Of a stretch of DNA of 64,000 bases, positions 31,429-38,711 are shown piece by piece. The stretch is from Chloroflexia bacterium (lineage in GTDB: Bacteria; Chloroflexota; Chloroflexia; Chloroheliales; Chloroheliaceae): the NCBI GenBank assembly GCA_038210655.1, contig JBBQWM010000003.1:49729-113728 (forward strand), read 5' to 3'. Positions within the stretch are counted from its first letter, which is position 1. Every line of letters starts with the position of its first letter. Both the position numbers and the translations under genes were made by a program. The notes under the pieces are model-generated. The model had not been told where the DNA came from and searched no databases. It was given only the letters and a program-made list of their open reading frames with translations.

Positions 31429-32724
31429 CTAGTAATGCACTTTGACCGGCGTTCCAATCGAGGCCCAGCCATACATAAACTTGGCGGCAGGGGTCGGCAA
31501 ATTTACGCAACCATGACTCATTGGACGACCGAAATTGTTGTGCCAGTAAGTACCGTGAATAGCGTAATTCGAGTAGAAATACATCACGTAAGGTACGCCG
31601 GGCAGATAATAATATTCACGCCCACTTCCGCCACTCATCGCCTGGCTACCGTATTTGACGTAAATGTTAAAGGTTCCCGTTACGGTCGGGTGGTTTGAAA
31701 CCCCGGTGCTAACCAGCGTGCTAAACACGGCAGTCTTGCCATCATAAGCGGTCAGTCTTTGTTTACTCAAATTTACGTCGATCCACTTACCACTGGTATC
31801 GGTATTGATGACCGAGGGAGGGACCGGTTGGGCTGCGACGGCGGTCGCTTTGGGCTGAGGTGCTACAGCCCCGCTTGCGCCCGGAATAGTCAGGACCTGG
31901 CCGGAGAAAATCAGGCTGGGATTGACAATATTGTTGGCCCGTTGGATCGCCTCGACGGTGGTATTAAAACGAGTGGCAATACTAGAAAGGTTATCGCCCG
32001 ATTGTACCGTATAAGTCCCGCTACTTACTGTTGATGAAGGGGGGGCGGGGGCCACTGCCGAGGCTGCCACTGCGGTTGCCGTTGAAGCCGGAGCCGCCGT
32101 ATCAGAAGCTATAATTGGGGTAGCGGTCGGCGGAATGGGTGTCGCGGTCGCTGGAGCAGGGGTAGCCGTCGGTGGAATGGGCGTAAAAGTCGGGGCTACT
32201 ATCACGGTGGGAGCCGGGTTAACCGTCTCGGAAGCCGGGGTGGTGGCTGCCAGGGCTGAGGCCACTTTGCCCGGAATCCGCAAACTCTGTCCGGCATAAA
32301 TATAATTCATGACCGAGATTTTGTTGGCGGAAGCCAGTTCGAGTAGGGTTACATTAAAGCGAGCGGCAATTGTAGAAAGGTTGTCGCCACGCTGTACAAT
32401 GTAGGCTTGCTCATTGGTGGTCGGTGGAGTGGGACTGTTGTTAGAATTGGAGCCATTGGCGTTCGGGATCGTAAGTTTTTGCCCGCCGAAAATATTGTTG
32501 ACGTTGAGGATGTCGTTGGCTTTTGCAATCGAACTGACTGTCACACCATAACGGGCCGCAATACTGGTCAGATTATCGCCGCGCTTGACTACATAAGTTT
32601 CATCGGCGGCTTCGGCAGTCTCCACTACCACCAGTCCAATCGACAAAACCAGCACCAGCGCAATCACTAGCGAAAGCCAGCCCTGTCCCCATCCTTTTCC
32701 ACGCATAACTGCCCTGTTAAACAT
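31429..32724 (-). CDS. Secreted 3xLysM plus YkuD L,D-transpeptidase
   Basis: Signal peptide, three LysM motifs (Y.V..GDNL..IA.RF), AIHGTYW...SHGCVNL catalytic motif. Confidence 0.93.
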   Translation of the reverse strand: MFNRAVMRGKGWGQGWLSLVIALVLVLSIGLVVVETAEAADETYVVKRGDNLTSIAARYGVTVSSIAKANDILNVNNIFGGQKLTIPNANGSNSNNSPTPPTTNEQAYIVQRGDNLSTIAARFNVTLLELASANKISVMNYIYAGQSLRIPGKVASALAATTPASETVNPAPTVIVAPTFTPIPPTATPAPATATPIPPTATPIIASDTAAPASTATAVAASAVAPAPPSSTVSSGTYTVQSGDNLSSIATRFNTTVEAIQRANNIVNPSLIFSGQVLTIPGASGAVAPQPKATAVAAQPVPPSVINTDTSGKWIDVNLSKQRLTAYDGKTAVFSTLVSTGVSNHPTVTGTFNIYVKYGSQAMSGGSGREYYYLPGVPYVMYFYSNYAIHGTYWHNNFGRPMSHGCVNLPTPAAKFMYGWASIGTPVKVHY

Positions 32725-32979: not shown

Positions 32980-33009
32980 ATAAAAAGGCGCGACGGGAAT
33001 CGCGCCTTT
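32980..33009 (-). terminator. Rho-independent terminator ending the peptide/NHLP-like transcript
   Basis: aaaggcgcga-loop-tcgcgcctttttatt on the minus strand. Confidence 0.75.
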
Positions 33010-33243: not shown

Positions 33244-33591
33244 TTAGGCTGATCGCAAACTGCGTGCCGCCTCTGGCTGATAATTGCCAAGAGTGCCGGA
33301 ACCGACCACTGCCAGGGCGCGGCGTTGTTCTTCGCGCTCGAATCGGTCGCGCTCTTCGATAAGCAAGCGACAAAACTGCCGGAAATCCGTTGTCGCACCG
33401 GCCACGTGCTGAAGCATTTCGACTTCCAGGCGTGGCAGAGTGCAGATCGGACTGGAGTCCACTGCCATTTGCCGATTATACTCGTGAGCGGCTTCGAGAG
33501 GGTCGCGCATTAAAAGCTGCTTAAATTCACAATCAGCGACTGCCATCTCGATCAAAACATTCAGTTGTAAGGCGCTTTTTAGACTCTTCAT
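33244..33591 (-). CDS. Small protein with NHLP-leader-like N-terminus
   Basis: LIEMAVADCEFKQLLMRDPLEA resembles the nitrile-hydratase-like leader motif A..D..F+..L..DP; GAGGGGAG RBS; no Gly-Gly plus Cys/Ser/Thr core. Confidence 0.6.
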   Translation of the reverse strand: MKSLKSALQLNVLIEMAVADCEFKQLLMRDPLEAAHEYNRQMAVDSSPICTLPRLEVEMLQHVAGATTDFRQFCRLLIEERDRFEREEQRRALAVVGSGTLGNYQPEAARSLRSA

Positions 33592-33692
33592 TTCCAAATC
33601 TCCCCTCTACCAGTTCCAGAGATATTAAATCTCAAAACTGTGAGAAGTAATCGATACCAGCCATAAATCTAATTTAAGGCTAAGAGAGTCCC

Positions 33693-33845
33693 CTAGTAAC
33701 CCGAACCGTTGTCCGGCATATCGTAACCCGAACCGTTGTCCGGCATATCGTAACCCGAACCATTGTCCGGCATATCGTAACCAGAGCCGTTATCCGGCAT
33801 ATCAAGTGTGTAAACGCCCAACCCCGCAAATTTAACCTTATTCAT
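33693..33845 (-). CDS. Unannotated 50-aa peptide MNKVKFAGLGVYTL-(DMPDNGSGY)x4
   Basis: GAGGTGGAGG RBS 8 nt before ATG; four in-frame 27-nt repeats differing only at synonymous third positions; TAG directly after the last repeat. Confidence 0.85.
   Translation of the reverse strand: MNKVKFAGLGVYTLDMPDNGSGYDMPDNGSGYDMPDNGSGYDMPDNGSGY
33696..33803. repeat. Four direct tandem 27-bp repeats (coding)
   Basis: gtaacccgaaccgttgtccggcatatc x2, gtaacccgaaccattgtccggcatatc, gtaaccagagccgttatccggcatatc; no spacers. Confidence 0.95.
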
Positions 33846-34293
33846 CGAAGTAACCTCCACCTCGTTAATTCTTCTGACGTACTAGCAGGAGACCCGTTAA
33901 AGCACCAATGCTGTCGTGACTATCAGTAGACCCGTTTAGTGGACCCGTGTAAGACTTAACTTACTTGTATGGGTGTATCATACAGGATGATTCTTGTAGG
34001 TATCTTGCAGTTTTCGGTGGTTTTGAGGTTTTTTTTTCATCAATTACGCAAAATAGGGCTTTTCCTATTTTGCATCATGCCGAAATGAGGTTATAATAGA
34101 GGTAGAACCAAGTTATAGCGTATTGATGATTTGGTCTCAAATGGGAATAGCGGTTTATACTAATTTACCTCTCGATTATAAGGTATAAGTGACCGCAAGT
34201 ATAGGGTCTGGGGTAATCCAGAAGGGTAGTTATTAAAAGTAAGGCTGTAAGACCGTTCAGTAACGGTACGAAGGGTAACGGAAAAATACCATC

Positions 34294-37200
34294 ATGTTGA
34301 CCATACCTGCAACTCGCTTGCTTGTCCCGGCCCGACCCGCGCCGGAACGCTTGCTCGAACGTCGTCGCCTGTTGAGTAAATTAACCGAGCGCCGCCGCAA
34401 GCTGATGATGCTGGTCGCTCCGGCAGGTTTCGGAAAAACGACCCTGGCGCTCGACTACGTTGCCAGCAATAATTTGTGGCAGGTCGGGGAAGCCGTAGCA
34501 TGGCTTTCGCTTGACCTGGGGGGAATCGTCAAATGGGATACGCGCATTTTTGTCCAGGCCCTTAGCCTTTCTTTAAAGAATGCGTTACCCAGCCTTGACC
34601 TCTCTGAAATTCAGCACGAACTGGCGGCTATGCCACCCGGTAGTGAACTCTCCGAAGAAATGGCGGCCCACCTGACTTTTTCGCTTTGTAACGCGCTGGC
34701 CCAGCAACCCCGTCCGGTGCTGCTAACCATCGACGATTATCATATGGTCTGCGACGAGCGGAGCGTCAAGGATGCCGGGCTTATCAACGATATTGTCAAC
34801 GCCTTTCTTATAACCTCACCTGGTCAGGTGCGGATTTTGCTTTCCAGCCGGGTCTATCCACGAGTGGATACGCTTAAACTGGTCGCCGACGATGAGTTGG
34901 TGGTAGTTAATAAGAAGGAACTCAAGTTTACTGAGGATGAAATCAAAGCTTTCCTTAGTTTACGCAGCAAAGATACCGCTCTATCCAACAAGGTGATGGA
35001 AGAGAGCGGAGGTTGGGCGGCAGCTATTTCGCTCAAACTGCAAAACCTCGATATGGAGGCCCAACTCAAAGAGCAGAACTATGGTGGGGCGATTGTCGCT
35101 TCTAGCCGTTACAACATTCTGGCTGAGGAAATGCTCAAACAGCTTGAGCGTCCTTTACGCCGCCTGCTCGAAGCTTGTTCGGCCCTCGAACTTGGGATCA
35201 ATGCCCCACTTGCCAGCCGCCTGATAAGCTGTTACGAGGTGATCGAAGCGCCAATCTCGGAGGCTATTATAGAAGCGCAGCTTCAAAAGCTGGAAATTTC
35301 CGGCCTGATCGAGCGCAACGAGACCAATCCCATTGCCGACGAGAAGGTTTCCCTCTACCGTCTGCACAGCCTTCTAAAAGAATATCTCGAAAAGAACCTG
35401 AGTGAACAGGCTTCCCAGGCTCTCAACAGTGCCGCCAGCGCCTATTATCTTGAGATCGGGGATTGGTCGCTGGCTTTTGAACACGCCCTCAAAGCTGGGA
35501 ATCACCCGGAAGCCGCCGAAATTCTCGAAAGACAGGCTTACGAACAGTTCAAGAGTAGTAAGGTTTCGGAGATTGAAAAATACGTCTCGCGTTTAGATGA
35601 GTCGGCCCTGGAAAAACACCCTCACTTGCTGTTGGTAGCAGGGATGGCAAGCTTTACCGCCGGACATACCGATAAAGCGCTGGCTTATTATCACGCGGCA
35701 AACAAACGTTGGGGTCGCTACGACGCTTTAGACCAGCTGATTTATAATGAAAATCTGGGGCCGGAAAATACTCTTACCATCGTGCCGCCTGCGCTCAATA
35801 TGGATTTGTTCCGTCTACTCAACAAGGCTGAAACGGTCGTGATTATGGCCCGGCTATGGCAGGCTACCGGGCGCAACCTTAAAGCGATTGCCGCCCTGGA
35901 AGGGGTCAAAGGTTTCCTCGACTCTTTGCAGAGCGAAAGCGAGCAGAGCGAAGACCGGCGGCTTTACGTGCTGGCGCTGGCCCGGCGCTTTTTGGGCAAT
36001 TGTTATCGGTTGGACGGGCGGCTCAACGAAAGCATCGAAGAGTTGACCCGTGCCATTAACATTTTTGTCCAACTGGACGATGGTTATAATATTGCAAGCT
36101 GCCGCCAGAACCTCGGTATTTCATGGCGACAGTTGGGCAACCAGGCCCGCGCCGAATTAAACTTCCGCCAATCGCTCGAATATTGGGAGCGGCAAGGTTT
36201 TAACACCAGTCAACTTAGCAATACCCTGAATAGCCTGGCGGTCGGTTTGATTAACGAAGGTCGTTACCAGGAAGCGGTCGGGTTGCTACTCAAAGCGCTT
36301 GATAAGGCCGTCGAAGCCGGTCACGAAGCGATGAACCACTATATTCTGGCCGGTTTGGGGGATGCTTACCTGGGGTTGCGCGACAAAGAAAAGGCCCTTG
36401 CGTGTTACGCTCAGGCCGGGGCCGAGGCCAGTCGCCAGAATAATTTTGAGATGCTGACCTACGCCAAGTTGGGAACCGCTCGGAGCCAGCGCCGGGGCGG
36501 AGAAATGTCTCAGGCGCGGCAGGCAATTCTGGCCGCGCTGGATTACGCCGACGAAGGCAGCGACGGAGATCGAGCCGCTGCGACCCTCGAAAACGGGGTC
36601 TATCTATTATTTAACTCGCATATCGAACTAGCTCAGGCCAATATTGAAGGGGCGCTGGCCCTGGCTCACAAGGTGCAATCCCGCCAGACCGAGGCGCTGG
36701 CCCATTTCTGGCTGGCCTATCTCTACTTTAAAGTAGGCCGTTATAAACCGTCCAACGACAATATGCGTAAGGCAATCAATCTGGCTCAGGAGCTTGGCTA
36801 TGATGCTTTCTTGCACGAGGAAGCGACCGAACTGACCGACTTTGCCCAGCATTTCCGGGTCAACCCTAACGATGCGGTGGGCGCTTTCTTTGCGCGTGGT
36901 GACGATTACGCCGCTAACCCGGCTACCAAGATCGAGCTACGGGCCTTTGGCAAGGGCCGGATTTTGCGAGGCGGTCAAGAAGTCCCTTCGGTCAGCCGCA
37001 AGGCCCGCGAGTTAATCTTTTTGTTGGGCGATGAGAAAGTGCCGGTTAGCGGCGAACGGCTTTCCGAAATGCTGTGGCCTGAAATAGTGCTGGCCGGTAG
37101 TGGGCTAGGTAGCGGTTTTTATAGCACGATTACCCACGCTCGGCGGGCGTTGGGTAGCCCGGAGTCGATCCGGGCTTCGGACGGCTCCTATTCGCTCAAT

Positions 37201-37671
37201 TTGCGTTATTTTTACGATGTCGATCAGTTTGAGGATCATTTAAGCCGGGCTGAGAAGCTGACCGAACTAGAAACCCGGATCGAGTATTTGCTGGCGGCGC
37301 TCGATTTGGTCAAGGGTGAATTCCTGATTGATGTGGATAGCGAATGGGCGCACCAGCGTCGCCAACAGCTTTTGAATAAAAAGCTGCGAGTTCTTCGGTT
37401 GTTAGCGACCGCTTATATCGCCCTGGACAATCGAGAAAAAGCGCTGGATACTTTAACCCTATTAATGGAGGCCGACCCTTATGATGAGGAGGCTTTGCGA
37501 GAATACACTAATCTTTTGGCGGAGGTCAAGAGTAAAACCATTGCGCTTAATTTCCTGCGTCGCAAGATGGAAGAACTAACCAAAGATGGGATCGAGCCGG
37601 AAGAAGTTACTCAACAGCTTTTCGATGAACTCGATGTTTCTCGCTCGGTAGCCCGGCGGCGAAAAGCTTGA
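34294..37671 (+). CDS. Large transcriptional regulator: MalT-type ATPase, TPR array, C-terminal wHTH/BTAD (SARP-like)
   Basis: APAGFGKT, LLTIDDYH; multiple TPRs; LRAFG..., LWPE, DVDQFE, KGEFL...W, ADPYDEE BTAD motifs. Confidence 0.9.
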   Translation: MLTIPATRLLVPARPAPERLLERRRLLSKLTERRRKLMMLVAPAGFGKTTLALDYVASNNLWQVGEAVAWLSLDLGGIVKWDTRIFVQALSLSLKNALPSLDLSEIQHELAAMPPGSELSEEMAAHLTFSLCNALAQQPRPVLLTIDDYHMVCDERSVKDAGLINDIVNAFLITSPGQVRILLSSRVYPRVDTLKLVADDELVVVNKKELKFTEDEIKAFLSLRSKDTALSNKVMEESGGWAAAISLKLQNLDMEAQLKEQNYGGAIVASSRYNILAEEMLKQLERPLRRLLEACSALELGINAPLASRLISCYEVIEAPISEAIIEAQLQKLEISGLIERNETNPIADEKVSLYRLHSLLKEYLEKNLSEQASQALNSAASAYYLEIGDWSLAFEHALKAGNHPEAAEILERQAYEQFKSSKVSEIEKYVSRLDESALEKHPHLLLVAGMASFTAGHTDKALAYYHAANKRWGRYDALDQLIYNENLGPENTLTIVPPALNMDLFRLLNKAETVVIMARLWQATGRNLKAIAALEGVKGFLDSLQSESEQSEDRRLYVLALARRFLGNCYRLDGRLNESIEELTRAINIFVQLDDGYNIASCRQNLGISWRQLGNQARAELNFRQSLEYWERQGFNTSQLSNTLNSLAVGLINEGRYQEAVGLLLKALDKAVEAGHEAMNHYILAGLGDAYLGLRDKEKALACYAQAGAEASRQNNFEMLTYAKLGTARSQRRGGEMSQARQAILAALDYADEGSDGDRAAATLENGVYLLFNSHIELAQANIEGALALAHKVQSRQTEALAHFWLAYLYFKVGRYKPSNDNMRKAINLAQELGYDAFLHEEATELTDFAQHFRVNPNDAVGAFFARGDDYAANPATKIELRAFGKGRILRGGQEVPSVSRKARELIFLLGDEKVPVSGERLSEMLWPEIVLAGSGLGSGFYSTITHARRALGSPESIRASDGSYSLNLRYFYDVDQFEDHLSRAEKLTELETRIEYLLAALDLVKGEFLIDVDSEWAHQRRQQLLNKKLRVLRLLATAYIALDNREKALDTLTLLMEADPYDEEALREYTNLLAEVKSKTIALNFLRRKMEELTKDGIEPEEVTQQLFDELDVSRSVARRRKA

Positions 37672-37853: not shown

Positions 37854-38711
37854 ATGACGAACCAAAAACCGAAAATGCTGATCGTACTGAGCCTGCTACT
37901 ACTGGCGGGTCTTTTGGTTGCCTGTGGCTCGAACGCGCCGACGCAAAACCAGGCGACCGCTACCCTGGCCCAGCCCAGCCCGACCGTCGCGGTTGAGACG
38001 ACGCTGGCGACTACCCTAACCACGCCTACACCCCAGGAGATTTTGCCGGCCGCTACGCCCGAACCAACTCCGACTATTTTTGTCCCAACCCTTACGCCCG
38101 TGCCGGACGCAACCATCGAGCCGACCCCGACTGCCCTTGCCGTAGCATCTCCGACTGTTGCTGCCGAAACGCCTCCGACTGATGGGGCTGTTCTAATAAA
38201 TATACCGGCTCCTGAGCCACCGCTCACTCCTACACCCGCCCCCGACCCGGTGGTGACCGGTTTGATCGTTGAGCCGCCGGTCAAAGATAGCGGGCGCTGG
38301 ATCGACTTTAACCTGGGCGATGGAGTTACCCGACTGGTCGAGGGCCGTAAAGTTATCCGCGAGTTGCCGAGCGCCTATGGTTATGGCATTCCCGGCAGCC
38401 CTACCGATTATTTTAGCACCGCCCCCGGCCAATATCAGGTCTATAGTAAGCAGGAAGCTTTGCATCAAGATACCGAGTATACCGGGCTGTATTTCCAGGG
38501 TTGGGTTGGGTTCGACTCTAGCCGGGCGAATGGCTTTCACTCTTTTTTGCTGGATGACAAGGCCAGCGTGGTGGATAGCAAGCTAGGGCCGATCTCGCAC
38601 GGCTGCGTCCGCACCGAAGATTGGAAAGCGGTCTTTGATTTTGCTGAAATTGGGATGCCGGTGATCGTTCACGGCACGTCGCCGCACGTGGCCCAGGCTC
38701 GGACACCCTAG
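37854..38711 (+). CDS. L,D-transpeptidase (YkuD) lipoprotein with Pro/Thr stalk
   Basis: Lipobox LVAC; RWIDFNL, GFHS...SHGCVR catalytic motif. Confidence 0.85.
   Translation: MTNQKPKMLIVLSLLLLAGLLVACGSNAPTQNQATATLAQPSPTVAVETTLATTLTTPTPQEILPAATPEPTPTIFVPTLTPVPDATIEPTPTALAVASPTVAAETPPTDGAVLINIPAPEPPLTPTPAPDPVVTGLIVEPPVKDSGRWIDFNLGDGVTRLVEGRKVIRELPSAYGYGIPGSPTDYFSTAPGQYQVYSKQEALHQDTEYTGLYFQGWVGFDSSRANGFHSFLLDDKASVVDSKLGPISHGCVRTEDWKAVFDFAEIGMPVIVHGTSPHVAQARTP

Follow-up and report, generated by a model that had tools for sequence, protein, structure and literature searches.

A divergent STAND-TPR-SARP regulator, a tandem-repeat peptide and an Os17-clan helical protein form a candidate AfsR/AfsS-type feedback module in Chloroflexota

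We analysed a 64,000-nucleotide stretch of contig JBBQWM010000003.1 from the Chloroflexia bacterium assembly GCA_038210655.1 (positions 49,729 to 113,728, forward strand; hereafter the window), in which the gene of a 1125-residue regulator lies divergently from two small genes, one encoding a peptide of tandem repeats and the other a 115-residue helical protein. The reading that we favour, with a probability of roughly one half, is that this trio represents a feedback pair of the AfsR/AfsS type with permuted domain order and an added partner protein, whose small products would act inside the cell on the regulator itself. Our analysis establishes the gene structure, the translation frame of the repeats, the co-inheritance of the three genes, the SARP fold of the regulator and a conserved promoter box with the correct geometry and genomic uniqueness.

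In the circuit that we propose, the regulator would be made from its own sigma-70-type promoter and, once its MalT-type NTPase is switched on, two C-terminal SARP domains would bind the two GCAAGAN heptamers that replace the -35 element of the divergent promoter and would recruit RNA polymerase. The peptide operon appears to be the single dedicated target of the regulator. Its transcript would yield a small acidic protein of one to six identical nine-residue units together with the Os17/NHLP-clan helical protein, and both products would most likely stay intracellular and act on the regulator by direct binding. The repeat protein would serve as a multivalent ligand, in the way that the repeats of AfsS mediate its binding to AfsR, and the helical protein would attach through its domain or through its invariant C-terminal R-S-A tail. 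Such back-binding may stabilise or redirect the active oligomer. All protein-protein contacts in this scheme are inferred.

Co-inheritance of the three genes

An earlier annotation made from the letters of the window alone (the original prediction) had described a minus-strand unit of the peptide open reading frame (ORF) and the 115-residue gene closed by a terminator, a divergent intergenic region of about 450 bp and a 1125-residue STAND ATPase-TPR-wHTH/BTAD regulator, and had taken the three genes as an autoregulatory circuit of three components. This layout holds: the genes and the terminator are in place, the gap between the peptide ORF and the regulator measures 448 bp, and domain matches and the SARP fold agree with the proposed regulator architecture. 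A co-inherited unit, with the regulator wired at the sequence level to the peptide operon, is likewise borne out by the results below.

The regulator, a small repeat ORF and a homolog of the 115-residue protein occur together at 13 loci in two genera, and on every contig long enough to show the context the regulator is divergent from the other two. Regulator orthologs are 49-75% identical and always adjoin the small genes, in agreement with the co-occurrence expected by the original prediction. Whole-genome searches recovered the 115-residue homolog in four of nine genomes of the window's genus and in all three of the second genus (g3); a search for the regulator ortholog found it in every carrier covered and in no genome of six non-carriers from the same family. 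As far as these searches reach, presence of the trio is all-or-none across related genomes. The flanks vary, with YkuD transpeptidases at most loci, a peptidase and a ribosomal operon at locus L009, and other genes in the second genus (the flanks differ in L009 and L023-L025), so the three genes, and not their neighbourhood, are the conserved entity. These observations support the view that the three genes are one co-inherited functional unit whose arrangement is more than chance. Their retention at 13 loci with differing flanks, together with their all-or-none presence, is one reason why we favour a feedback pair.

No signal peptide, exporter, processing peptidase, importer (Opp) or modifying enzyme is conserved with the trio at the orthologous loci, and genes for radical S-adenosylmethionine (rSAM) enzymes, YcaO, LanM, ATP-grasp enzymes or peptidase-containing ATP-binding transporters (PCAT) occur in none of the loci.

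Promoter box and wiring

Alignment of the divergent regions of the 13 loci revealed three conserved blocks, corresponding to the regulator promoter, a ribosome-binding site and a SARP-type box. The box and the -10 element that follows it have the form GCAAGAN-4 nt-[AG]CAAGAN-8 nt-TAnnnT, which is invariant in 12 of 12 loci from the two genera while the letters of the spacers vary. In the window they span 34008-33977, and the 6.7-Mb assembly contains the complete arrangement only once. Where the heptamer pair is matched elsewhere in the genome, the sites are intragenic and lack a -10 element; these were rejected as chance. In described SARP sites, two direct heptamers recur with a period of 11 bp, and 8 bp separate the proximal heptamer from the -10 element downstream of it (PMC10972967; PMC11301090); at the sequence level the geometry of the predicted box matches the sites of both reports.

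In a distantly related cassette, which comes from a different family within the class, two or three (C/A)AGAG repeats with a 12-nt period stand upstream of the peptide gene, the last of them 8 nt from a TAnnnT -10 element. Direct activation of the peptide operon by the regulator through the predicted box is thus well supported, given the invariance of the box, its SARP geometry, the SARP fold of the regulator, the uniqueness of the site in the genome and the promoter of the related cassette; DNA binding by the regulator is what we infer from this agreement. An invariant and genome-unique box, a SARP fold like that of AfsR and a wHTH that is the best-conserved segment of the regulator all favour the feedback pair, as does the same promoter logic in front of the peptide gene in homologous cassettes of another family.

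The regulator

Residues 1-450 of the regulator match the MalT NTPase (NF003420, E 2.4e-40; PDB 8bob, E 1.2e-16) and contain the Walker A motif APAGFGKTT. Matches to TPR_12, TPR_2 and TPR_1 span residues 561-831, and a BTAD domain lies at 975-1113 (Pfam, E 3.2e-16). The C-terminus is therefore composed of wHTH and BTAD, and does not carry the LuxR-type HTH of MalT/LAL regulators. Searched against PDB chains as a sequence profile, the SARP region matched designed TPRs only, and a fold search was needed. The AlphaFold2 model of the last 262 residues (predicted local distance difference test, pLDDT, 88.6) has as its top Foldseek matches the AfsR SARP on the afsS promoter (8k60 and 8hvr; template-modelling score, TM, 0.75-0.81) and EmbR, with TM values of 0.73-0.81 overall. 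Conservation is highest in the wHTH. At the level of the domain, the TPR region is well conserved and not hypervariable, though the peptide unit differs between species.

The repeat peptide

The product of the peptide ORF reads MNKVKFAGLGVYTL followed by four identical DMPDNGSGY units, and Tandem Repeats Finder reports a period of 27 nt and 4.0 copies at 33696-33803. Orthologs carry between one and six copies with the consensus D-x-P-D-x-G-[SA]-x-aromatic. Such nonapeptide units occur at 10 loci of the type found in the window's genus (g1), the orthologous arrays being four copies of DMPDCGSGM, DEPDQGASY, DQPDAGAGF or D(T/M)PDNGAGF, five of DMPDNGSGF, DQPDAGSTF or D(Q/M)PDNGAGF, six of DMPDGGSSF and a single DNPDCASGW. 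The second genus has single-copy peptides of 17-25 residues with APDNTFDD/G ends. Neither of the two small products of the module has a match above cut-off in Pfam or NCBIfam. An RTX-like or calcium-binding nonapeptide was considered and dropped, since the glycine positions vary across orthologs and the second genus has single units.

Codon differences between units of the same gene comprise 224 synonymous and 10 non-synonymous changes in the annotated frame, as against 3 and 227, and 3 and 219, in the other two. This pattern indicates that the units are translated and that strong selection keeps them identical. In three arrays (L006, L009 and L022) growth has proceeded by duplication of two-unit blocks of 54 nt; there, alternate units are identical in DNA and adjacent units differ at synonymous sites only. 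The units begin directly after the leader and stay in register up to the stop codon, with no spacer or recognition sequences between them. Leaders are 11-16 residues long and partly hydrophobic, with a moderately hydrophobic stretch of at most nine residues, and the last leader residue before the Asp is always hydrophobic. By inspection, the leaders contain no Sec-type signal, and the 17-25-residue forms of the second genus have no hydrophobic stretch. One genome of that genus carries tandem peptide genes, both with APDNTFDD ends (L025, G010:C157, 11502-11722), one product having 17 residues and no hydrophobic segment and the other 33 residues with a signal-like FVLALLGAAP.

These properties bear on an extracellular alternative, in which export of the precursor and cleavage behind every aromatic residue would release DMPDNGSGY 9-mers that come back into the cell, or signal to it from outside, bind the TPR sensor, switch on the STAND ATPase and close a positive feedback loop. 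Units that do not vary within a gene but do so between species, copy numbers of one to six, the exact leader-to-stop register and the constant hydrophobic residue before the Asp would all suit a secreted multi-copy pheromone; the second ORF of genome G010 has its signal-like segment, and the peptides of homologous and paralogous modules resemble Phr-type propeptides in having a charged N-terminal segment followed by a hydrophobic one and a short tail. However, Sec export would demand leaders that are longer and more hydrophobic than these of 11-16 residues, the 17-25-residue forms have nothing of the kind, and an exporter, a peptidase and an Opp system are not conserved in the module. Moreover, the units are joined without spacers or recognition sequences, and the TPR region that would have to read them is conserved while the unit varies. 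We consider a secreted pheromone unlikely. Intracellular products of a feedback pair are favoured because the units are kept identical with no conserved signal peptide, exporter, peptidase or modifying enzyme beside them.

The 115-residue protein

Among 5.8 billion proteins, no more than 11 clusters belong to the family of the 115-residue protein. When 1.84 billion representatives were searched with its profile, only three hits and nothing outside the family came up; the family is therefore very narrow. The whole length of the protein is conserved except for the tail, which is the most variable part and yet ends in an invariant R-[ST]-A. The AlphaFold2 model (pLDDT 78.5) has five helices with residues 99-115 disordered, and Foldseek found no match for it in the PDB.

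HMMER gave sub-threshold but consistent matches to NF038399 (Os17), TIGR03793 (NHLP), PF14407 and Frankia_peptide, the bit scores falling far short of the curated cut-offs (13.9 against 40 in one case and 12.5 against 50.9 in the other). When the family was compared by hhalign with an alignment of 16 Os17-like proteins from related genomes, columns 8-81 aligned with columns 4-62 at 90.8% probability (E 1.2e-6), with a 12-residue insert, and a hidden Markov model (HMM) built from that Os17 alignment and run over all ORFs of the genome retrieved the 115-residue gene as its fourth and last match (E 8e-5). Because of these two results, the earlier label of "NHLP-like" is correct as a statement of remote homology, although not as membership by HMMER cut-offs; by profile comparison, the protein belongs to the Os1348 ("Os17") NHLP clan as a distant member. 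It shares with the clan an alignable N-terminal region of about 80 residues and the motifs A-x-x-D-x-x-F-[KR]-x-L-L and L-x-x-E-E-x-x-x-L, and differs in scoring under every curated cut-off and in having the 12-residue insert, a long additional helix and the tail.

A clan of leader peptides raises the question of whether the locus makes a ribosomally synthesised and post-translationally modified peptide (RiPP). In this orphan-locus scenario the repeat ORF would be a multi-core precursor, the NHLP-like protein a second precursor or a leader-like chaperone and the SARP regulator a cluster-situated activator, with tailoring and export genes elsewhere. In favour of it, SARPs classically act as pathway activators (PMC10972967), the sub-threshold matches (NHLP, Os17 and Frankia_peptide) consistently point towards the NHLP clan with its RiPP leaders, the multi-core layout fits, and the tail is the most variable part of the protein. 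Against this, three genes alone are conserved and none of the loci has an rSAM, YcaO, LanM, ATP-grasp or PCAT gene; no maturase or PCAT gene is found in the window or at any orthologous locus. Unlike NHLP-type RiPP precursors, the protein has neither a GG cleavage site nor a Cys/Ser/Thr-rich core, and the residues at its very C-terminus do not vary. None of the features that define a RiPP precursor is present in it. Os17-clan proteins, moreover, mostly follow cyclase-STAND-TPR genes and not biosynthetic enzymes. A RiPP locus, or one for another bioactive peptide, is quite improbable.

Os17-clan proteins and STAND-TPR neighbours

Genes of the Os17 family occur in 47 of 61 related genomes. We sampled the neighbourhoods of 20 of these loci, 19 of which kept the Os17 match. 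Nine of the 19 lie immediately downstream of a gene for a protein of 1230-1650 residues (among L063-L072), which was a Guanylate_cyc-AAA_16-TPR protein in all five cases checked, one of them in the window's own genome (C15:5574-9825, L072). Six of the 19 are near STAND-TPR-SARP regulators, one of these being also among the nine, so that 14 of the 19 sampled loci place an Os17-clan small protein beside a STAND-TPR protein. From this gene order, Os17-clan small proteins look like habitual partners of STAND-TPR proteins, a pattern into which the earlier proposal of the NHLP-like protein as a partner of the regulator fits. Literature searches found no description of this module or of a link between Os17 and STAND proteins.

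The same survey bears on a one-way output, in which the regulator would sense an unrelated signal through its TPR and NTPase modules and the small products would act on other targets, for instance by metal or calcium binding of the Asp-rich units or by modulation of another STAND protein, with no feedback. A genome-unique box would make the two small products the whole output of the regulator, and genome G009 has a peptide and Os17-like pair whose neighbour is an ABC ATPase gene, with the regulator missing from the vicinity. Strict co-inheritance with this regulator in two genera speaks against such an arrangement, and so does the recurrence of Os17-clan proteins beside STAND-TPR proteins of different outputs, which points to direct partnership. 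We regard one-way output as rather improbable. The feedback pair, for its part, is favoured by the recurrent adjacency of Os17-clan and STAND-TPR genes and by the AfsS precedent.

Comparison with AfsR-AfsS, RRNPP systems and MalT

The small protein AfsS contains 2-5 tandem repeats (3 x 12 residues in S. coelicolor and 4 x NTHITD in S. avermitilis); its identity between species is only 17-38%, so that its orthologs are recognisable by synteny and repeats only; afsS adjoins afsR, and AfsR switches it on from such a box, placed 8 bp upstream of the -10 element (PMC10832544; PMC2267785; bioRxiv 10.64898/2026.09.02.748808). AfsS binds AfsR with a dissociation constant (Kd) of 4.7 uM, dependent on repeat number, and boosts promoter binding by AfsR, for which, in its wild-type form, afsS is the single high-affinity target in chromatin immunoprecipitation (PMC10832544; PMC2267785; bioRxiv 10.64898/2026.09.02.748808). 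By analogy, AfsR-AfsS of Streptomyces is the closest described system and a close functional precedent, so the earlier claim that the window holds a type not yet described was too strong (PMC10832544). Both regulators join SARP, STAND NTPase and TPR modules, and both adjoin a small gene of tandem repeats (2-5 in AfsS, 1-6 here) that diverges rapidly between species. Direct repeats stand in both small-gene promoters with the proximal repeat 8 bp upstream of the -10 element, the small gene is essentially the sole high-affinity target (here as predicted from the uniqueness of the box), and the predicted SARP domain superposes on the AfsR SARP at a TM of about 0.8. In contrast to AfsR-AfsS, the NTPase here is MalT-like, the genes are divergent and not in tandem, the units have nine residues and are perfectly identical, the host belongs to the Chloroflexota, and a second, probably co-transcribed Os17/NHLP-clan gene has no counterpart on the AfsS side. 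Contact between the small protein and the regulator is known for AfsS and is proposed for the present module.

Several points weigh against a feedback pair. The domain order is NTPase-TPR-SARP and not the SARP-NTPase-TPR (SARP-NOD-TPR) order of AfsR, and the repeat peptide has no detectable sequence homology to AfsS. An exact leader-to-stop register is more characteristic of precursors that are cleaved into their units than of repeat proteins that stay whole; the peptides of related modules have a membrane or signal-like segment and a short tail, which hints at an exported ancestry, and one genome of the second genus has a signal-like form of the peptide beside a signal-less one. If the operon is the sole target, the physiological output of the circuit remains unexplained. 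Finally, a search of RNA-seq runs for the sequence of the locus returned DNA metagenomes only and gave no expression evidence.

RRNPP quorum-sensing systems (Rap, NprR, PlcR and PrgX) work with Phr-type propeptides, some of them multi-copy, which carry an export signal of the Sec or PptAB type and mature extracellularly. They resemble the module in having a TPR regulator beside a small peptide gene, with several copies of the mature unit in some Phr genes. The analogy drawn with them in the original prediction does not carry over. The receptor here is a 1125-residue STAND ATPase with SARP output and not a compact, NTPase-free HTH/phosphatase-TPR protein, the peptide has no Sec signal on inspection (only the second ORF of G010 is signal-like), the module has no conserved exporter, peptidase or importer genes, and the host is not a Firmicute. 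MalT of E. coli is a STAND activator governed by its ligand and by the partner proteins MalK, MalY and Aes. Its NTPase module is homologous to that of the regulator, and the logic of an oligomerising switch under the control of ligand and partners would be common to both. The regulator differs in its output (SARP, that is wHTH and BTAD, against the LuxR-type HTH of MalT), in a longer TPR array as sensor, and in partners that are small dedicated proteins encoded next door.

Features and neighbours of the locus

The features of the module are given in Table 1. A spacer of about 100 nt separates the peptide ORF from the 115-residue gene, and the two small genes are probably co-transcribed. The spacer folds no better than shuffled sequence (z -1.65), and no attenuator is claimed; an Rfam search of the intergenic region gave no credible match. 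The terminator sits between the 115-residue gene and a LysM-YkuD gene, for which a separate promoter-like site lies at 32875-32848. The module is bracketed by two genes for YkuD L,D-transpeptidases (31429-32724 on the minus strand and 37854-38711 on the plus strand), one of them with three LysM domains. This synteny is kept within the genus and is missing in the second genus and on one side of L009, so the YkuD flanks are probably unrelated to the module. The YkuD L,D-transpeptidases and the Peptidase_S15 of L009 were considered as processing enzymes and rejected, being absent from the second genus and different between loci. The peptide mRNA has CGGGTC(C/T)(A/C)CT repeats in its 5' leader, which number two or three at most orthologous loci and are absent from L006 and L009; they could be an operator or an RNA motif.

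Table 1. Positions of the predicted features of the module within the window.
Feature	Position	Strand	Remarks
Intrinsic terminator of the peptide/small-protein operon	32984-33009	-	11-bp stem (6 GC pairs), 4-nt loop, T-run
Small helical protein gene	33244-33591	-	115 aa, starts MKSLKS
Peptide ORF	33693-33845	-	50 aa: 14-aa leader + 4 x DMPDNGSGY up to the stop codon
Shine-Dalgarno of the peptide ORF, GGTGGAGG, with GGAGG	33854-33861	-	GGAGG kept in the 13-locus alignment
CGGGTC(C/T)(A/C)CT, three copies, 5' leader of the peptide mRNA	33886-33947	-	
-10 element TATGAT of the peptide operon promoter	33977-33982	-	TAnnnT at constant distance from the box, 12/12 loci
SARP-type box GCAAGAT-acct-ACAAGAA	33991-34008	-	Two heptamers, 11-bp period; 3' heptamer 8 bp upstream of the -10
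Sigma-70-type promoter of the regulator, TTTGCA-17-TATAAT	34069-34097	+	TATTATAAC block conserved in the 13-locus alignment
Regulator gene	34294-37671	+	1125 aa: MalT-type STAND NTPase 1-450, TPR ~560-840, SARP (wHTH + BTAD) ~880-1125

Related modules

Elsewhere in the same genome, outside the window, a paralogous module (C8:31880-37400) has a 1192-residue STAND-SARP regulator on the minus strand divergent from three genes, which encode a 59-residue membrane peptide ending in RCDPGSPW (36100-36279), an 84-residue Os17-like protein (36452-36706) and a histidine kinase. The distantly related homologous cassette of the other family (L027, G018:C8, 5138-12674, together with L073-L079) contains an AAA-TPR-BTAD regulator, a 47-residue peptide with a membrane segment and then an APD...GGPGSG tail, DUF5317, an Os17-like protein and a HAMP-GAF-PAS hybrid histidine kinase. 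At L026 (G009:C1, 7506-9041), the genes of a 42-residue peptide ending in DDPKLPW and a 77-residue Os17-like protein precede that of an ABC-transporter ATPase. A STAND regulator is missing from the surrounding 8 kb; the peptide and Os17-like pair can thus travel without the regulator.

A further reading, doubtful in our estimation, would make the trio a branch of a wider, undescribed signalling system of the Chloroflexota, composed of a STAND-TPR receptor, an Os17/NHLP-clan adaptor and a peptide-tail ligand (x-P-D-x...G-S-G-aromatic) with SARP or nucleotide-cyclase output, in which the ligand of the present locus would have become unanchored and multiplied into a pheromone-like precursor of four to six copies. 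If true, this would be the first peptide-signalling circuit on a STAND receptor.

Conclusions

If the trio is a feedback pair, the logic of AfsR-AfsS, an NLR-like switch that activates a tiny repeat protein which binds back, would not be a Streptomyces peculiarity. It would instead be an ancient design shuffled across phyla with its domains reordered. A module so small, with three genes, one promoter box and one target, could also serve as a compact orthogonal switch. In this bacterial class, the adjacency of Os17-clan genes to STAND-TPR genes with SARP or cyclase outputs suggests that these proteins are partners of bacterial NLR-like sensors. The trio would then provide the first functional context for the Os1348/Os17 proteins of the NHLP clan, annotated so far merely as putative RiPP leaders, and would extend the AfsR-AfsS logic to another phylum.

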